Source of the DNA: Tubiluchus corallicola
Lineage: Eukaryota; Animalia; Priapulida
DNA length: 64,000 nucleotides
Reading direction: 5' to 3'
Assembly (NCBI GenBank): GCA_030141605.1
Contig: JAQGDQ010000003.1
Coordinates: forward strand, 496,001-560,000
Every line of letters starts with the position of its first letter. Position 1 is the first letter of the stretch. Below are positions 5,201 to 61,792 of this stretch, one piece after another. The notes beneath the pieces were generated by a model, which did not search any database, was not told where the DNA came from, and worked only from the letters and a program-made list of their open reading frames with translations. The position numbers were made by a program, and so were the translations under genes.

Positions 5201-8200
5201 AAAATTATGTTAAGAGATGCTGCATTAGAACTCTGCCTGCAAATGGAATTTAATGAATGAGATCCTAATTCATCATCTCAAAGCTAGAATTTGCACAATG
5301 TCGACACTATAATATGTTTTAATGCAGTAGGGTAGTGAATGGTTACATTATAATGGTTACCACATGCAGTCATCCTACAGCATAGACAAAGGACAATATT
5401 CCGTACCCATAACATATGTTGATTAGCTGCTCCTCTCTGCTTGACTACAAATAGGCTATCATAATAAAATTTTTAACCAGTCTACTAGTAGTCATGCATA
5501 GTTAGTTTACACCTGTATGAAGGCATACATGTATGCTTCAAACAGATCCATGAATGCAATCGATCCAGTCCAATTTACATTAACCAGTCTCACAATGCGC
5601 CATATTCTCACGTGCGGGATAAATAAACACTGCCATGGAAACGCATCAAACAATATAGTGTCTTTTTACAGCGGCGCTTTCACAAATGCGACTAAATTGC
5701 TATTGAATAACAACGAAGGAAAAAGCTGAGCTGATCACAGCCACAATAGCACAAAGCCAGTATAGTGGTACATGTCAAGCCGATTAAATTGCATTTAATG
5801 CGTTACGATTATGTCTGACATACACAGAGATAAAACAAAATAATACAGAACAATGGACCGAATGTAATGTTTGTCAAAAGATGGTGAAGCATTATTGATT
5901 TTAATAAATCTGATCTACCTCTCACACTAACTTAAAAGCACCACTTTTGCCTGAAACCATTTACAAAATCTTGTAAGACTTCCCATAGCAGATTATTAAA
6001 ATGCGAACATATTGATGTGATAATGCATTTTCACGAAACAACTATAGCTGCATGCTGAAACAAAAAATATATCCAACAAAAACCCCATCATGTTTTTTGT
6101 TGCAAGATATAAGTGTATTACACGACAGGATTAAGCGATTGCACTTTTTTCTTTGATTTTTCAGCAAAATTATTCAAAATTACATTTGCTGCTTAAAAAA
6201 TAAACGTCATGAGCACATTTTGCATACCAGAAGATGTGACACTATAGACACAAATGCCTATTAACAATAGGATATGTTAACAATGTAATGACAGAAAAGC
6301 AAATATGTCCAAAATGAAAAACGTATTTTTTTGAGTTCAAAAACTGTTGCGACTCAAGAGTAAAAGTATTTCCTGCCATTACAGAAATTTCCAAAGCTTT
6401 TTCTAATACACGTGCAGACGACAAATCTATTTTTCTACTAGAAGGCAAATGATTAACAAAATTACAAAATTAGCTTTAACATTTGGCATCATTTTTTAAA
6501 TGAAAACAAAGCAGTCGATGTATTAAAATAAAATAACTTACATTAATTAGGCTTGTGAAACCTTATTGTAACTTCGTAGATCATCTGTAGGTAATTGTAG
6601 ATACGTATTATGATTGTAAAAAAATATCTTCCTGTTTCCCCATTTTTATATGTGATTATATTTCTTTGGGTTGTCATTTATGATACAAGACTGTACTGCA
6701 CACACAAATTTGCAAATGTGAATCAAATGAGATGCTTTCTTGTAATTTGTAATGTACAGAGTGCAATAATTCAGTTTGTTAATTAAGTAATACATAAATA
6801 TTGTATACTTCTCTAAGTTCTTTAATTTTGTAGCCAGCACGACCAATGATTCCACCAGCTTGACTTTGATGCACCAACATACGGATGTCACATCTGAAGT
6901 CTAAATCGTTGTACTGTTGGTACTGAAACAAATTGAAGTGCAATGCAATAAACCTTTCCTCACCTGTGTTAGAACGCCTATAATATTATACATGATTTCC
7001 ACAGCTGCCGTATTTACACAACAATTTAGCGAAGTTAGAATCTACAGTAATAAAACTTTACAGCATAGTAATCTCAATGGTCACTTACATAAACCTATGT
7101 TTTAGCCAAAATCGAAAAAGCATTATTAAAGTTGAAGAATCAGATGATAAATCTGTGATTAAAATCACACACACACTTCGTCCACATAACTTGTACAATT
7201 ATTTATCTCATTCTAAAATATCTTACAACACTGTATGAAAAGTTTATACCTCCTCCAATGTAGGTATGATATCAAGTAGAACATCACAAGCTGTGTTAAG
7301 ATCCGAGGAAATCGTAAGAATGCTACAAAATTTAAAAGCACATATGATATTATACTATCATATAAATATAATTAAGTAGTACGTTATAAGCATAAAATAC
7401 TTTCCAATTTAAATGGTTCATTGCACAATTAAAAATAATGTCATAATAAGTTCTAAAGACATTATTTTTTTCGTATGCAGTAAAGCAGCCAATATTATGC
7501 ATAAATAATTATATATGTGACAGATGTTTAATATGTCTAATCAAGCTCAGTGTTAATTGTTATAATCTTAATGTCACGATTATTATTTTTGGCATTACAA
7601 ACCCACAATTAATGAAATTTTTACCAAACTTGAAAGACAGGAAATGAGAAGAAAGAAGAATCATGCAGCCTGCAACTTACAAAAGTCTCATCATTTTGTC
7701 TAGTCAGACAACGAGAGTTCAACTTTTTAGCACTCTTATAACATACTTCTGAAATGCAAACTCTTTAATGGTTGTAGATTCAATAAGTTAAAGTATTATC
7801 ACCTGTATTGGTACAAGAAACCATGAATGATAATTACGTACTGGGATACAGGCTGCATCCCAACTTTTTCACATTTCCAGTCTTTTAAGTTTGGTATCAA
7901 AATTAAATGAATTGTGGGTTTTTAATTAACTGTGTATTTTTCTTAGAAGCAATACTACTAAACTGTCAGTTATTGAAGGTGCTTATTTAGTCTTGATATC
8001 CTCTGCATAATAGTAAGACTATTATGTTGTAAGACTAAAGTCAATTATAAAGCACTATGCTCTTTTGACTACTAGATGTAGGTTATTTAAGAAATAATAA
8101 ACTTCCACTGAAAATTAGCAAATTATGCATGTAAAATAGCTTCCACAAAATTTTCATTGTCTACAGAAATAATTTCAGCCCTATCTGACAGAGAAATGAA

Positions 8201-11200
8201 AATGAAAAATTACCTTGCATCAACACTATGAAAGCGAACAACATAAATGGATTGAAAATGCCTCAGTGATAATGAAGAAATGGGTGTATTGTAGAGGTGG
8301 TTGTTTTTGTGTGATTATGAAAAATGGCATGGTTCACTTGGACTAATTCATGTGCGGCAAACTTGTGACATTGCATGCATGCAACTACTAATGGACTGAA
8401 TTTTAAGTTTACTGTTAGGCTGGAAATGGTTGCACACAGACAAATAAGCTAACCTGATGAAATGACAACAGTTTTAAATGTAGTGCATGACACGTGTTTA
8501 TTGCAGAAGACTACAAATTTAGACGATGGGAAAAATGAAAAACTATTGAACAGCAATTAATAATTCGACTCTAAGTGGACTCTTCTATTGTTCTAAATAT
8601 GTCAGAGATTTAAACTATCAGCCAAAGTTAATTACAGGAAAAGTTCAGTGAATTTTAAAGGAAAATGTTAAAAACATTCTTACTCATTTACATGATGATG
8701 ATGATGATGATGATGATGATTAATCTTTTATTTTAAAATACATATTTACAATAGATGTGTCTTAAATAATTATATGTCATTTGCCAAACAATTTTTCAAT
8801 GATTATAAGATAGCAGCTATGAAATTTAAAAAAATTTACTTGGTTTTAGTCTCACACTATTAATATTAGGGGATATCTTGTAATTATGCACTTATAATGT
8901 TTGTAGTATCATTGACGTTTGTATTATAATGAAAACCTGAATAAGTGCCCAAATTATCCATTTCATTCTTAAATTGACAAGCACAATTTTTTATCTTTAA
9001 TATATCTTTAAATAATGAACTAATTTACTTGAAAAAAAACAAGTTTTGGATTTAGTCTGTGTGGCCTCTAAATTCGCTGAACTTGACCTTTCAACTCTTT
9101 ATGCGGGTTTCGCATCAACCTTTTAATAGATATAAATCGATTTCTGAAGCAGAAGATGCATTTGAAATGTTGAATATAGATGTTGATACCTTTATCAAAC
9201 AAAAAATATTTGGTTTAGGCTTTGAAAACGAAATCCGCAATTACAAATAATTTTAATGTGGGCCATCAAATAAATCCTATACTTAAAGCTAACCAAAACT
9301 AGCTAGAGATTCAAAGCACTTCAATTCAATCCACATTAGACAGGACATGAACTAAAATATGTTAAACTGATAATAAGATAAAAGTAGGAAGTGGAGGAGT
9401 TATCATACCGTTCTGGACCTTGGCTGTCTGGGACTGTTACTGCTGCTTTGTACTGTGGGTCGATGGGCCAGCGCGGGCCGGGCCAAGGGTCAGGACAATC
9501 ATTGAGCATATCAAGGTCAGCATCGTTGTTCGTGGCCATTCAGGGTGGCAAGACCCCAGGGGGAAAAATAACAAAAGGCAAAATAATTAAGATAAGTTAA
9601 TATTATCGTTTAACAATTACATAAAATTACTATGAGAGGTGCCCGTTTACTTGTACAATTCATAAATCTGCTTAAATACTTATTACAGTATTGCATCATT
9701 AAATTATCACATAAAATTAGCAGGCACTGCATTAAAAAGACGGTAGATAACAATCTGCTGAATGAACCAGGCTGCTGAGTGTTGACCACTTGTAAAATTT
9801 AAACAATATAGTTTCCATGTTTGAAAAAATGAAAATTTATTTATTCAACACCCCATTCAAAATTATAGGCTGAATGTTTTTACATGTATTAGTGTCAACT
9901 GTTGCAAAAAACCGCAAATGCTGTCACTATAAACAAGTTGAAAAAACGATAGAATTGGTTTCAAAATAATAAAATGGGCACCTCCTTAACAGGGTTGTGC
10001 TATATAAAATACAGACTTTTTAAATGAAGATCATTAATGGATAATAATCTCATACACATAATTCAAATTCATGTTCTAGCAACAACTAGCAACAACCCTG
10101 ATCAATGAAAGCGATAAAACAATCACATCACTAAGGAGTTATGATAATACTATTACATGAATTCTAGTTAGTGTAAACTATAATGAAAATGTTAAAAACT
10201 TTTGACATTACAAATAAGCTCCTCACCACGTTTAAAACAATGTTGTGCAACATAGACAAAACCTGTAATTTCAAATTCTTATTTCATTTAAATACTTTGC
10301 AAGACTGGTTAAGCTACAAAGTTAAAATTGCAGGATTATTTGGAAAATAAAGGTACCGCCAATACATACAAGTCTTTTCATATTAGCACTTGGCAACATT
10401 AATTTTTCATTCATTAATTAATTACTCACTGAGATATTAAATTTTATCGTGAATAAGCTGCTAACTCTTATTAATAGATATTCAAAGTTACACAAAATTA
10501 AAAGCAATTTCACTAAATCTGCAGATAGAATAAAAAGTACGTCGATTGCTATGAACAGTTGGAGAAGTCAACAGAAATCATTGCGAATGTAAATTCAAAT
10601 CATGAATTTAGATTCTCGTTCACTCAAACAGCCCGACACTCTACGGCGAGTTTCATGTTTAAAGGGGTAAACAGGATCAGTTTGCTAACTTCACAATAAC
10701 AACGAAATTAGCACGCCTTGAAGCAGAGACATTAAAAAAGTAATCTTTTCCATATCTCTGCCTTAAAGAGTTAAGCGAACCAAAAGCTCTGGGTTACCTT
10801 AGATGATAGAAAGCTCTACATTTTGATTTCTTTGCTGTTACCACAATTTGCAACAATTGCCCGGTCACTCTTAGTCTGGGCCTATACTAGGCACCAAAAA
10901 CTACTATCCATCAACTCCATTAACTATATTTTTGTTATTTTTTGTAGCATTTAGTCATTTTAAATAAACAATACAATTTGCTCATACTGCCGAAATACAA
11001 ATTATGGAATGGACGATAAATAAATCTACTAAACTTACGTCTGTTCTTAAGCGCTTGATATTTGCACCACCTTTGCCAATAATAGCGCCTGCATTCTGCA
11101 TAAACAAAAAAAAAACAACATTAATCTTCAGAAAAGGAATATTAGAATTTTCTCTACGAGCTAGTAAGTTCAAAAACTTTGCATGATGACAACTATGCTG

Positions 11201-17200: not shown

Positions 17201-20200
17201 AATTTCCACGTGTAAAAACTACTAGTGTGCTAACCTACGTTTAAGGATTTTTGTATATGACCAATTTTTACCTAACCGGCTGTATTAATAATCTCTTAGA
17301 AACCACATCAGTTCTCCAAACAACGAATTGTCAACAAGCTTCTAATGTACACAATTATGAGCACCTATATAGATTATTTGAAATATCATCTACGTGCGTG
17401 CAATGAGCTTGGACGGAAACGCACCTGAGTAAATCAATACATTCTAATCATGACAGGTAAGTGAGCTGGAAATATATATCAGATTACAGGACAATGTGAT
17501 TAGTGTAGGCTGATGGCAAGGTAAGATTGTACCTATACTCAATATTAATCCACTAAAACACACTGGACTTATCAACGTCTTGACTCACCTGGATTAGAGT
17601 CACACCTGGTCAATTAAGAGATGCATGATTTTGCAACAAATGAAACATAAACATTGAGAAAAAAGTTTACCTTTGTAACTTCACACTTCACGTTTTACAC
17701 GTATGTGCATCCTTGAAAGCAATAATTAAGGAAAATACGGTGATTTTTTTATATCCGACCCTATTTTGAAGTATCATAAAAAGTATGCATTTTAACACCT
17801 ATTATAATGCCAAGGCGTTTCTGATAATTAAATAATAGTTCAAAGGCTCAAACAACAGCGGGCGGGCTCTGACGACATCACAAATGAACAGTTTTATGCC
17901 AATATCTGTACAGTGTAAGTACAGAATACAACCAATTCTACTCAGATAACAACTAACAGTGTTACAGTACACATGTATATACTGTAACTATAGCAATTAA
18001 CAGTTTATGCCAATATGTAAGTGAAACAATTGGATACCTAATTCTGAAACAAAAATTACACCAGAATCAGCTTACGACGCCAAAGTAGTTCAATTCACTT
18101 TTGACCCCCTAGCACAATTGCATAAGATTACTTTATTAAAAAGAAATGTTATGTTGCTAAAATACTAAATTTACATAATACCTACGCCCTTTGTAAAAAT
18201 TTAGGGATTTTAGGGAAAATGATTTAGTTACCCTGATTTAATACAGAACTCCTCTAAGGCAGATGCATCAAAGCACTTTGCCAACTACACAATACAAAGA
18301 AAGAAAGGCAAGATGTCAGGAAAAGTACTATGTACGAGGTAGCATTGCATCAGACCTGACGCTTTTTATTCCCACATATTTGCAAGACAGTGTCCCCAAC
18401 AAGATAACACTTTACAAATTTTATTTTTTCGAAAAAATGTTTCGAATAACTGCACGGTTAGTCATCTCAACTACTTGGTAATAAATTTTCCACAAAAATT
18501 CATGCATATATTTTTAGCTTTCTAGTTTTCGTGCAGTGTCATAGCAAGAAATGTGTAGAAAAGGTAATTCTTTTAGCAAGTTTTCCGATATTTTCAACTT
18601 AAATATTTTTCACTTTTTAAGTTAAATATTTTTCATTTACTCCACAGTTAGCCATAAATAAATGAATAAGTAAACAAGTTTACAAGTGAATAAATAAACA
18701 ACCCTAGTAGTACCATAAATGCCATACTTTAAGCAAAACCATTTGCAACTAATGCAGTGATAATGAAATCTCACCAAATAATGAAGTTATCACCAACACA
18801 AATGTTCTTATGTTTTTGACAAGCGGATTAGTTGAATGAAAGGATAATTCACTCCAGGTTAATAACGTTAGGTTAGAAACTGACCATTACCTATGGTGCC
18901 TATTGTTGAACAGGATTAATTAGTTCCCTAGTATGGATCTCAGGTGCTCCTATGTCGAACAAAGAAATGCTTGAAGAACAAAGACACAAACTGATAGCAC
19001 TCACTTCTAGGTATTTATATCTGCTATGATCTGCTGTACGTAAATCAGCTGCATATACACTATATATACATGCAGCGGACTTAGTATATGTTAATAATGT
19101 TTTTTGTATAATATATACATACATATATATGTTTTTTTCTGTTTTTTTGTTAAATTCTTTTTAATGTGAGGGATGTCAAGAAATGATTGGCTCCCACTGC
19201 ATGGAAGAAACAGAAAAGAATAGATAAGGACCAAAAAACCATAAAAAGAATAATTATAAATAAAGAATTTGGTTTTGCAATGTTAATGGTGCTACGACTT
19301 ATTTGTTCAATAATTTTACTTTCTGATGTCTGACAATCAGTAGAACGAATTAAAAAATACATTAAATAAGAAATAAATGATAAAATAATAAAAATGCGTT
19401 TGTAGATACTTATAATATACTTTTAAGCATGGCCAGAGAAACCTTTCCTTACATCACAAATTTACAGAAGAAACACGTAGCTAATATCAGCAAGAAAATT
19501 TAATGTATGTATAGTGTAACATAAATAAAATAAGTTTGATATTAATACAGAATTTACTTAAAGTCCTGTTTTGTTACCCTGCAAATTCGGTAAGTTTCCT
19601 CGGATTGAAAACTGACCAAGGGCAATTACACATTACAGTCATTAATTGTCAAAATTAATATGACGGCACGGAATATCTCAAATCTTAATTTGAGGCACCA
19701 CACTAATTCTATTAAATATTGTTTCTGTTGTCGGATATTGCGAGTAACCAATCGTACATGTTTTGCATTTTCACAATCTAATGAACAACAGATGAAAGAA
19801 GAATACATGAGCACCATTTTAGGTTAAGAGTTCTCTGTGACGGCTGCAAACCTCAATTTATTCAACAGATTAAAGAGAAAATAAAACACTTATTGTTAGA
19901 AAAAACTATACAGAAAGAGCAAGATGAGTTGAAGTTTGTCTAGAAAAGTACTTTGTGAACTTGTTCAAGGTTTTAAAGGCCAAATATTTGTTTACTTTTG
20001 GACTGCTAGGAGAATTCTACCTATTAAGCAATTAAGTAACAAACGTCAGCCAAATTAGTATATGTATCTATACTCTTATATTAATATTCTTGGTATGGGC
20101 TTAATTTATATATATATAAGATTCGAGGCTACAGCTTCGACGACGGCACCATTTGCGGCGATCTATATATCAAACGAAAGGTCTCGATCTAGTGTCTTCT

Positions 20201-23200
20201 CATTGATGGTTTATTTTTCGAATCGGGCCCACCGGGAGGAACGGGGGGCGAAAAACCTCCAAAAATGGCCCTTTTTCGGCCGTTTTTTGCAAAAGTTATA
20301 CGGCTGAGATGTAGAGAACGGGAACGGGCCGAGGGGGGTGCTGGGTATGGATAGATAGCCCGTTCAGCGGTGGGTGTAGTAGGCATATTTAGAATTCCCG
20401 AGAGGGCCAGGGCGCCCCGCAACGGGCGTTTTCCCGGACCCAACTCGCGATTTTTTCGAAATTTTGACCAAACGGCCTGCGGAAAAAAACGTTCTAGCGG
20501 CGCTTGGTGAGACTCTTGGAAGGAGATATGGGGCTCTTTACAAAGAGGAAGAACAGGGCTACACGATGATGTGGGTTATATGTTAGGACAGGTCCACCGA
20601 GAAGAGTATCGACGAGTTAATTAGGTGTTTTATTTTCGGCGATTTTCGCTTAGAAAGCTGTGAAAATTCTCGCTTAGAAAACTGCGACGCATTCCATTGT
20701 GCTGACGTCATCCATTGTACTCTGTCTATAAGTTTAATTCAGCAAAAAGCTGCTTTGCAACATACAGTAGGCAGGAGTAAACGCTGCTGGCTTTGCGTTA
20801 GGTAAGTAGGCAGAATGTTACGGGCTTTGTGTTATAAATGAGGACTTGGTAGGACGTTTGCGTATTATTGATTACACGTGTATTTATACGCAAAATCTTT
20901 TGCGGGGCCTTTGCTAGTTCTAATTATTTTTGGATACCCCAATAACTGACATTCTACCACTGTTTCTGATTTGCCTCCTGTTTCCACGAGGTTCAAGTAC
21001 CACAAACAGATAAAACACTGGTTCATATTTAAGTATCTTTTTTCAAGAACATGAAGAGCTGCAGAAGCTTTTTATTTTACTTCATTAATTATTAAAAATG
21101 ATGCAGGATTGGATTTACTAACTGCAGACACACCAAATTGTAGTTTTTTATTTAAACATTTTCAGTTTTTAGGTTTATCTACTACTATATAGCTTCTTGT
21201 AAACTAGTTTAGCTAATTCTTTTTATTATGTTCCAGGCCTAATCTGATATTTGGGAACTAATGTTGTTTTTAATTAGAAGTGAAAAAGTTGAAGACTCAC
21301 CCAAGGCCTGCCATTACAATACTGCATAATAAAAAAAAGTTAAAACATCAACCAAACATAACTAAACAATCTCTTAGATTTTCTCGTTACATGTGCATTA
21401 ATTTAGCCAAACTAAGAGTATTCCACACTTAGATTTTTTTCACGTTACATGTGCATTAATTTAGCTAGACTAAGAGTATTGCATGTTTCCAATTGGGTAT
21501 TCAACGTTTAACACAGATGAAGAGCCAGTTAAGACTTCACCTAGCGTTGATGTATACTCGGTATTAGCTGAATTATTGTATGTCATGATCTTAATTATGG
21601 CGAAAACTTAGTTAATTAAACACTGTATAACCTGTATAACAACACTTAACCCAGTTATTACTATTTAATTTAGGTGAGTCATATTGTGTTTAGGGAGCAT
21701 ATTTATCTACAGTTTTCTACATAATATGCATAAAGTCAGCGGCTGCAGTCAGAATTTTGAAAAATATTACAAATTTGGTTACATAAAACTTCTTAATGAC
21801 TCAAAACTAATTAAAAAATTGTTGATTTATGTGTAATGCACATGTACATGAAACGCGTTTAGTTTTAGGCAAACTCATATGAAGACTTGACTAAATATCT
21901 ACGTCACGAAACATATTACTTTACTACATTATATCACATAACTAAGGGTCGATTCCTGCTCAAGGGCGCCTACGATGTCAAAAGATTTTCTAAGCAAGTG
22001 GCAACGTGTCACCTTCACATTACTTTGAACTAGCACTGCAACAAACTAAAGGTTCGAGTTAGGCAAATGATTTTGATTAATAACACGGAATACAATCAGA
22101 TATCAAGATGAAAGCTTATGGCAAAGATATTTACAGTTAAGGCTTTATTCAAACTGTAATCTAGACGCCAAAATATGAATAGGGTAAATAAATTCTGTAT
22201 AGTATTCGTAGTTGTTTACTGTTATTATCAGCATTCAAACAGCTAGTCTCTAGTAAATCAAACACATCTAGAAATAACAAGTCACCTTTACATAACAAAC
22301 AATTTAAAAATGGAAGCAACAAATGAAATACAAATCAGAGTGTATCAAACCCACTTACTAAAATATTAGAAATTACATTTCCTTAGTAGTTTTGTAAAAT
22401 TCTCCTAGTGGAATAATGAAAAATGTAAGTAATCAAAACCGTAAAAGTAAGAAAATATACTCTAGGAAAACTAGAGAAATGATTCTGTACGGAATCGATG
22501 TAAGCAGCAAACAATTGATATTAGAACCTAACTCTTCCACTACGGGTTGTACTTTTTTTGTATTACTTATGCAAGCATTTGTCTCCAAATACCTCAGCTT
22601 AACACTGGTTTTGAAGACATAAATTTGTTGTGGCACACGTCATAATATAACAAACAAATTGTCACTAGGTTTTAAAAAGAACTTTTATTTTCCACATTTT
22701 TGAAATTTATACGATGCTCTCTCTAAAATATCTCCAAAAAGGTACGTCTAATGAGAATTTTACCGATAATCTAGAACCGTATTGGACTTCTCGCTAATGT
22801 GAACCCATTGTGAGTGTGCACAGCCTGTGCAGCCAGGCGCTCACTCCGTTAACACACCTTTTCACGTTCAGCCAATTTTGCACGTGGATATTTATACAGC
22901 TGAATGAATCCGTGCTGACCAGTCAATACCTCATTTCCCTCACATCCAATTAGTATAATTAAAATAATTGACTGGTAGCCGCCGTACAGCATACTAGGCC
23001 ATATAGCGCGTGCATGCCCCAAGACTCAACAGCGTATTACATTAATATTTTACCTACGTTGTCGTTGAACATAACGGTCTTACAAATGAAACCAGACGTG
23101 TATAACGTCTCACACAGTAAGCATTTCTACCTGCAACAGAAACGGCATTACTCCAGCCATTGAGCCTTTTTATGCAAATCTTGTCGACTTTTTTTTAAGA

Positions 23201-60540: not shown

Positions 60541-61792
60541 ATGGCTGATGGCGAGAGGAAAAGCTGTGTTCTGTGTAGGAATGCAAAAAAGCCTGTCAAC
60601 AAGAAAACTGTATCAATAGTAATCTGTGACCGGTGTTTTGATAAATCAGCCTGTACAGACCAGCCTGAAACGTACAGAGAAAGGGTTAATTCAATTTCTC
60701 TTACAAAAACAAACGCAAGTGGTCAGAGCAATAGCACTGAAACTTTAAAGGCCCAAATACTGGAATTGGTTGAGCAAGAGGAAAGCCAGCGAAAATTACA
60801 GTACATGTTAAATTGGCTCTTGGAAAACGATGAGTGATCAGCTCAAAAATTAGTACTAGAAAAATTGACCAGTGTGGACAGAGAATTAGAGGCATTAAAT
60901 GACAATGTAAAGAAACTAACCAATAGTAAACCTGGTGTCTCATACAGCTCAGCAGTGAAAGACAGCCTAGGAAAGCAACAGCTCAAATTAACTAGCGGCA
61001 AAAGTGACAGTGCTATGACGACGCCCTCTTATAGATCCGCCCGCAAGACTGACAGCATTGCTTCAAATGTGCGGTACAAGCCTGAGTGTACGGTAATTAT
61101 CGAGAACGTAAAAAGCAAAGAAATAGTTAGGAACAGTATGTCGATTAAAAAAACACCTTAGTGAGAAATTTCCCAGATTCAGGTTTGATACAGCTTATAA
61201 GACAGCTAGAGGAAAAATTCAAATACAGCTCAGAAGTGAGGAAGAAGCTGATGGCATCGTAGAGGGTTGGAGAGAAAATTTCCTTGGTACCGAGACTGTA
61301 GCAAGGAAACCTTAACAAAACGCAATCGGTCTTCTCAAAGACTGCGATACGTCCTTAACAGATGATGAGATAAAAGCGGACATTTGTCGTGCATTTTGGG
61401 ATGCCAAAATTGAAAGATTTAAACGGAAAGACAAATCACCCCTACCACTGGTTAAAGTGACATTTGCAACAGAGAAAGACCTCGATTTGGCAATGCGAGA
61501 CGGTATTCCAGTTGGAAAAATGTATTGTGGTGTGGAGAAATTTGTGTTCAAAAATAGGCCATTGATTTGCTACAATTGTTACAGTTATGGTCATGTCGCA
61601 AAATGGTGCGCTCGCAAAGTGGTCTGTGGAAACTGTGCAGAAAATCATAAGACGGATGATTGCAAAAATGACGAAGAAAAGTGCAAAAACTGCAAAGGTG
61701 GTCATAGATCTTGGTCAAGGGATTGCCCTATCTACAAACAGGAGCACGCTCGCATAAATGGGGAAGCAGACGACACATGCCATGTTTGCTAG
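60541..61792 (+). pseudogene. LINE ORF1 (gag-like: N-terminal CxxC..CxxC, coiled coil, three zinc knuckles), disrupted
   Basis: CYNCYSYGHVAKWC, CGNCAENHKTDDC, CKNCKGGHRSWSRDC; in-frame TGA 60835-60837, frameshift in the A-run near 61150, TAA 61313-61315. Confidence 0.9.

Follow-up and report, generated by a model that had tools for sequence, protein, structure and literature searches.

A PTB-exon-11-like acceptor on the frame-shifting 44-nt exon of hnRNP K in Tubiluchus corallicola: a conserved AG-free zone and a candidate self-limiting switch

The closest described parallel to the acceptor discussed here lies in the gene for PTB. Exon 11 of that gene is preceded by an AG-free zone of 381 nt, its branch site has been verified at -351 while a candidate at -51 stays idle, and PTB itself drives skipping of the exon, which leads to nonsense-mediated decay (NMD) (PMC1431707, PMC1940037). 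Distant branching is also documented for hnRNP K: in the human intron before HNRNPK c.214, lariats map branches to 13 positions between -230 and -270, Table S5 listing no closer one, and the validation of such distal sites used primers for human, mouse, rat, and zebrafish HNRNPK (PMC5378181). All eight distal sites treated there were found in human and rodent and five of the eight in zebrafish, a count that the text gives for the eight sites together, and Taggart et al. proposed distal branch sites as a kinetic holding state (PMC5378181). The Au-Kline variants c.214-35A>G, c.214-77G>A, c.257G>A, and c.257+5G>A bound the same 44-nt human exon (PMC9606382, Table 1). The vertebrate distal branch site is already published and the mechanism class itself is known; the accessible text of these two papers describes neither a regulatory role, nor a C-patch array, nor invertebrates (PMC5378181, PMC9606382). 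Two further systems invite comparison. In C. elegans, fubl-1 and fubl-3 are RNA-binding-protein genes whose autoregulated non-triplet exons are skipped to NMD, as in the case proposed here, but these are other genes, and neither a distant-branch layout nor hnRNP K is mentioned in the accessible text (PMC13247117). The yeast COF1 3′ splice site, in which structure bridges the gap (PMC3239191), shares the long branch-to-AG distance, but no conserved or covarying stem was found in the hnRNP K zone.

It is informative to set the hnRNP K exon of Tubiluchus corallicola beside these systems, using a 64,000-nucleotide stretch of DNA that we refer to as the window. With PTBP1 exon 11 and PTBP2 exon 10 it shares a small exon of non-triplet length in a gene for an RNA-binding protein, a long AG-exclusion zone, a distant branch (predicted here) with an adjacent tract, a premature stop on skipping, candidate binding sites for the encoded protein, and a zone that is kept where its sequence can no longer be aligned. 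The differences lie in the protein family and the motifs, in that the PTB exons belong to the RRM family, with 34 nt and CU repeats, whereas hnRNP K is a KH protein with a 44-nt exon and GNCC or C patches; moreover, feedback and decay are proven for PTB, whereas we propose them for hnRNP K. With the human HNRNPK intron the likeness extends to the orthologous exon and its phases, the distal branches at -230 to -270 being those of human and the AG-free layout being that seen here, with pathogenic intronic variants at -35 and -77 on the human side; the zone in Tubiluchus is shorter (175 nt).

The 44-nt exon and its acceptor

The gene lies on the minus strand of the window. Its exon translation matches proteins named hnRNP K, which align to the exons, in agreement with the identity given in the original prediction, and an open frame crosses KH1 and KH2 through exons 11850-11748, 11095-11039, 9452-9409, 7322-7250, 6922-6809, and 4450-4321. 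In a KH1–KH2 tree the protein falls among non-vertebrate bilaterians without supported placement, with a best identity of about 70%. The KH3 exons at the 3′ end of the gene appear to leave the window (positions 1-2200). In other animals, the last intron of hnRNP K hosts miR-7.

The exon of interest (9409..9452, minus strand) lies in KH1 and is orthologous to human HNRNPK c.214-257. Upstream of it is a 57-nt exon carrying the KH1 GXXG loop (11039..11095, minus strand; joints 11095/11748 and 7322/11039, with GT-AG ends), whose donor at 11039 pairs with the 44-nt exon or, when that exon is skipped, with the 73-nt exon that follows (7250..7322, minus strand). As predicted, the exon shifts the frame: on the window sequence, its skipping leads to a stop after eight new codons, at a TAA (7298-7296) within KH1 and inside the 73-nt exon, with junctions 7250/6922 and 6809/4450 downstream. 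The exon resembles PTB exon 11 in exactly these respects, being small, not a multiple of three, and followed on skipping by a premature stop with junctions beyond it. In four of the five loci scored (window included) the skipped frame meets a stop in the next exon; in the mammal-type locus it runs without one through the 73 nt of that exon.

The acceptor itself is unusual. Read from the sequence, the CAG occupies 9453..9455 (minus strand) and stands at the end of a 175-nt AG-exclusion zone (9455..9629, minus strand), a length that no other AG-free run on this strand of the window reaches (3594 AGs; second longest, 144 nt); the plus strand holds runs of 194 and 165. At intron AG frequency, a run of 175 nt has a chance of about 3e-5. 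The other acceptors of the gene have AG-free zones of 28–42 nt (five scored of seven), and the T fraction of the last 30 nt is 0.10 at the 44-nt exon acceptor versus 0.43–0.63 at the seven others. The polypyrimidine tract is displaced upstream (9559..9586, minus strand) and adjoins two predicted distant branch sites recognized by motif, TTAAC with its A at -145 and TTAAT with its A at -135 (9586..9601, minus strand). Between tract and CAG lies the C-patch spacer (9456..9558, minus strand), a candidate hnRNP K or PCBP binding array in which GNCC occurs 11 times and six CCC patches are present, another C run ending the tract itself; nowhere else on the minus strand do 11 GNCC motifs fall within 110 nt (mean 0.52). 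The AG-free run, the displaced tract and branch-like motifs, the T-poor acceptor, and a CU patch at 9399-9386 all sit where the original prediction had placed them; it overlooked a proximal branch-like CTGAC within the spacer, with its A at -38.

That prediction had also named membership in a dispersed repeat family as an objection to itself, and this origin was rejected: the depth of the island in DNA run X1 (12.9–14.2) equals that of its flanks, whereas a repeat bin close by reaches 1490, no second copy within the window scores better than E 0.11, and Rfam gives no match anywhere in the window. Run X4 covers 9304-9983 without a difference to the window, but it differs little from it anywhere. 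Two other segments of the window may be recorded here. A GC-rich island at 20100-20480, with a peak GC equal to that of the target, looks like part of a mobile element or a promoter lying upstream of the gene, and a 158-codon open frame at 61316-61792 (plus strand) has CCHC zinc-knuckle-like spacing and is likely a retroelement gag-like remnant.

The original prediction called for a junction joining 11039 to 7322, and this junction is present in an RNA-like contig of a relative. Specifically, run X6, which we guess to be RNA and whose source is about 92% alike in exons, yields a 731-nt contig (depth 162.7) with the joints 11748/11095, 11039/7322, 7250/6922, and 6809/4450, all canonical. The second of these bypasses the 44-nt exon, so that the predicted skipped, frame-shifted form exists, as one contig in one run that speaks of presence and not of level; the stop of the skipped frame is read from the window sequence and not from X6. 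Among the runs listed, none of RNA contained the exact sequence of the window and none came from an NMD-blocked sample. The spacer is uncovered by runs X5 and X6, and X6 covers 8 nt of the 44-nt exon, the included path being unseen there; such gaps in coverage speak neither for nor against inclusion or spacer conservation in the relative. An annotated skipped HNRNPK isoform may well exist in transcript databases.

The intron that follows the exon has features of its own. It contains both sizeable intronic contigs of X6, 9220-9416 (depth 30.5) and 7325-7566 (depth 84.9), a weak hint of late splicing or retention at this place. It also contains, at 7550-7925, high-copy repeat fragments with a depth of up to 1490 in X1, whose loose ends carry GGTTCAAATCC, which we take to be tRNA B-box-like; this suggests a tRNA-derived SINE.

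Conservation of the layout and its motifs

A degenerate pattern of acceptor, 44-nt exon, and donor, which occurs by chance in none of 100 shuffles of the window, was searched in metagenome contigs and returned 95 loci. Five of these, with less than 250 nt upstream, were set aside (four were AG-free up to the contig end, and one had a run of 174). In each of the other 90 loci, whose upstream DNA measures 250 nt or more, the acceptor carries an AG-free zone of 118–396 nt (median 189), reaching at least 150 nt in 83. AG-free zones at the acceptor of the preceding exon have a median length of 26 nt (range 11–79; 29 of 57 scored), and those at the acceptor of the following exon measure 15–73 nt (six of 57 scored). 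Together with the window, the loci form 57 groups at 97% identity and 25 at 70% identity; since three similar clusters account for 54 of the 90 loci, the count is better taken over the 25 groups, whose zones span 138–396 nt. The best hits of the loci are annelids, bivalves, a bryozoan, insects, fish, and mammals, labels that are rough throughout and weak where a locus offers one exon only. The pattern detects solely genes that keep the exon and both splice sites, so losses of the exon are invisible to it. No locus is more than 60% alike to the window, which indicates turnover of the sequence under a stable layout. The conservation foreseen for invertebrates and vertebrates is present as an AG-exclusion zone of at least 100 nt, as at PTB exon 11; what is conserved is layout and motif density, and neither an alignable sequence nor a single stem.

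Within the zones, composition changes from the 5′ end, T falling from 0.46 to 0.21 and C rising from 0.16 to 0.37, and the motifs follow a particular grammar. Counted over the 25 groups against dinucleotide shuffles, GNCC occurs 178 times versus 87 ± 7.5, GCCC 65 versus 30, and GCCCA 20 versus 4.5, whereas plain CCC is under-represented (127 versus 177). The hnRNP K binding logo is GCCCA. The GNCC count at the acceptor of the 44-nt exon exceeds that at the upstream acceptor in 29 of 29 loci, at least three C patches are found in 28 of 29, and a CCC patch in the last 110 nt is absent from two of the 25 groups. The enrichment of C patches and GNCC agrees with published hnRNP K preferences and fits the PCBPs equally, the sites being predicted ones; hnRNP K requires several C patches, about three (PMC7498318, 10.1101/201996).

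Comparison within clades gives a similar picture. In one clade, TACTRAY and the T tract are kept in 16 of 16 aligned loci, the middle of the zone varies in length, and the C-patch block at the acceptor is near-invariant; a second clade (15 loci) has the same order of elements in a different sequence. A small hairpin-like block stands mid-zone in L001 and related loci and is deleted in L023, L035, and L040 (three of the 16 aligned), which shows that the spacer can shorten with its flanking blocks retained. Over all groups, YTRAY at the 5′ end of the zones shows no enrichment (14/875 versus 66/4886 nt) and is present in 13 of 25. The donor side is less consistent. In the window, the donor GTATGA and its CU-rich patch occupy 9386..9408 (minus strand), and the predicted patch is indeed there at 9399-9386, but across loci it is weakly shared (C 0.23 versus 0.17; higher in 22 of 29), and we have downgraded it as a conserved element.

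Possible mechanisms of control

We favor the reading that the 44-nt exon is a distant-branch essential exon of the PTB-exon-11 type, with hnRNP K, once bound to the C-patch spacer, causing skipping and decay, and we give it a probability of roughly 0.6. On this account, branching in Tubiluchus corallicola would take place at -145 or -135, and the spliceosome would then cross the spacer to the first AG; we propose that AG is barred from the zone because the first AG across the spacer is the one taken. Bound to the spacer, hnRNP K may hinder recognition of the tract or the second step, whereupon the upstream donor would join exon 7322 instead, and the product, with its eight new codons and a stop inside KH1, would presumably be degraded.

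The strongest competitor, which we regard as unlikely although far from negligible, keeps the same distant-branch layout and either assigns its regulation to PCBP-type poly(C) binders or other factors, or holds that the layout mainly delays splicing, as retention or a holding state. PCBP1 activates exons from C-rich motifs upstream of acceptors, motifs that it has in common with hnRNP K (PMC13751310, PMC5829739), and the kinetic variant can draw on the holding state of Taggart et al. (PMC5378181) and on the two X6 intronic contigs, which are a weak hint of slow splicing. However, hnRNP K has been inferred to silence exons from precisely this position upstream of the acceptor (PMC13751310), and a C-patch array confined, across this span of animals, to the one frame-shifting exon of hnRNP K is most simply explained as self-sensing.

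The original prediction had envisaged a different device, in which two helices, GGGTC/GACCC and GCCA/TGGC, loop out the spacer, bring the tract beside the CAG, and compete with hnRNP K. The segments are complementary at the positions named, and GGGTC/GACCC pairs with a probability of 0.93–1.0 in three folds that end in the first half of the exon, before the donor; yet this falls to 0.0 in both folds that include exon and donor, also at 15 and 25 °C, and GCCA/TGGC stays at or below 0.01 in every fold tried. The zone as a whole folds no better than shuffles (z = 0.11), and 15 of the 25 group zones fold less well than their own. A 5-bp match between the acceptor tail (last 15 nt) and the far zone is found in 21 of 25 groups, above both nulls (15.5, 3/200; 13.7, 1/200), but the matches stand at scattered positions, and matches of 6 or 7 bp show no excess. 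Likewise, the effective tract-to-AG distance falls in the lowest tenth in five of 25 groups, but its mean rank among shuffles is 0.46 and there is no consistent shortening across the 25. In the second clade, a 5-bp analogue helix is 96% paired, but three sequences break it and none of its five pairs is compensatory; the consensus folds of the two clade alignments, with 24 and 38 pairs, contain no compensatory pair either, counts that concern the helices of other clades, the arms of the window's own helix being uncovered by any close relative. With neither a stable stem that shortens the branch-to-AG distance nor covariation found in these folds and alignments, a structure-bridged 3′ splice site is not supported, and we consider this form of gating improbable. 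A local stem in Tubiluchus corallicola is possible, but it is not the conserved feature. In the predicted fold with exon and donor (9567-9395, minus strand), the spacer pairs with the 3′ half of the exon and the end of the tract with the donor region, so that in this one species both splice sites would be hidden.

That the exon is constitutive, with an odd but unregulated acceptor and with skipping as splicing noise, is a very improbable reading: there is one skipped contig only, and by the estimate of Gooding et al. chance can account for at least half of long AG-free zones (PMC1431707), but the zone is present in 90 of 90 loci against its controls, it carries a motif array, its human counterpart has mapped lariats, and the main X6 contig of the gene is the one with the skipped path.

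Implications for hnRNP K and its evolution

The favored reading, control of the exon by hnRNP K through the spacer, bears on human disease. In the mammal-type locus L022, the published HNRNPK branch motif sits at -245/-242 and the distal-branch primer matches the same intron exactly (PMC5378181), and on this locus c.214-35A>G and c.214-77G>A would each create an AG. We offer a new AG inside the zone as a possible reason why the variants at -35 and -77 are pathogenic, and predict that the gain of an AG anywhere within about 240 nt of the acceptor is a risk. In people hnRNP K is dosage-sensitive (Au-Kline syndrome), and we found no feedback mechanism described. HNRNPK autoregulation is absent from the accessible text of PMC7547044, PMC9895063, PMC12179342, PMC13247117, PMC9284458, 10.1101/2020.05.20.107375, and 10.1101/2025.04.25.648738 and from the accessible part of the PMC6547761 supplement. 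More generally, in a literature search with subscription journals mostly outside its reach, we found neither HNRNPK autoregulation through the 44-nt exon nor its conservation in invertebrates, nor hnRNP K binding, feedback, or decay data for this exon in any species; the motif array, the skipped form, and the breadth of conservation among invertebrates likewise had no precedent in the literature searched.

It is also worth considering how old such control may be. At slightly better than even odds, we suggest that hnRNP K has controlled itself through the 44-nt exon since the last common bilaterian ancestor, by means of a distant branch and an AG-free array of GNCC and C patches that has retained its grammar through complete turnover of its sequence. 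The exon would then be an independent, KH-family twin of PTB exon 11, the deep-intronic Au-Kline variants would fall inside its zone, and blocking with an oligonucleotide could raise hnRNP K from the healthy allele. The switch can be reduced to a precise and cheap test, with one exon, one spacer, and one junction. The zone also shows that an intronic element can be kept across bilaterians in its arrangement and its density of motifs, of a kind that alignment-based scans miss.
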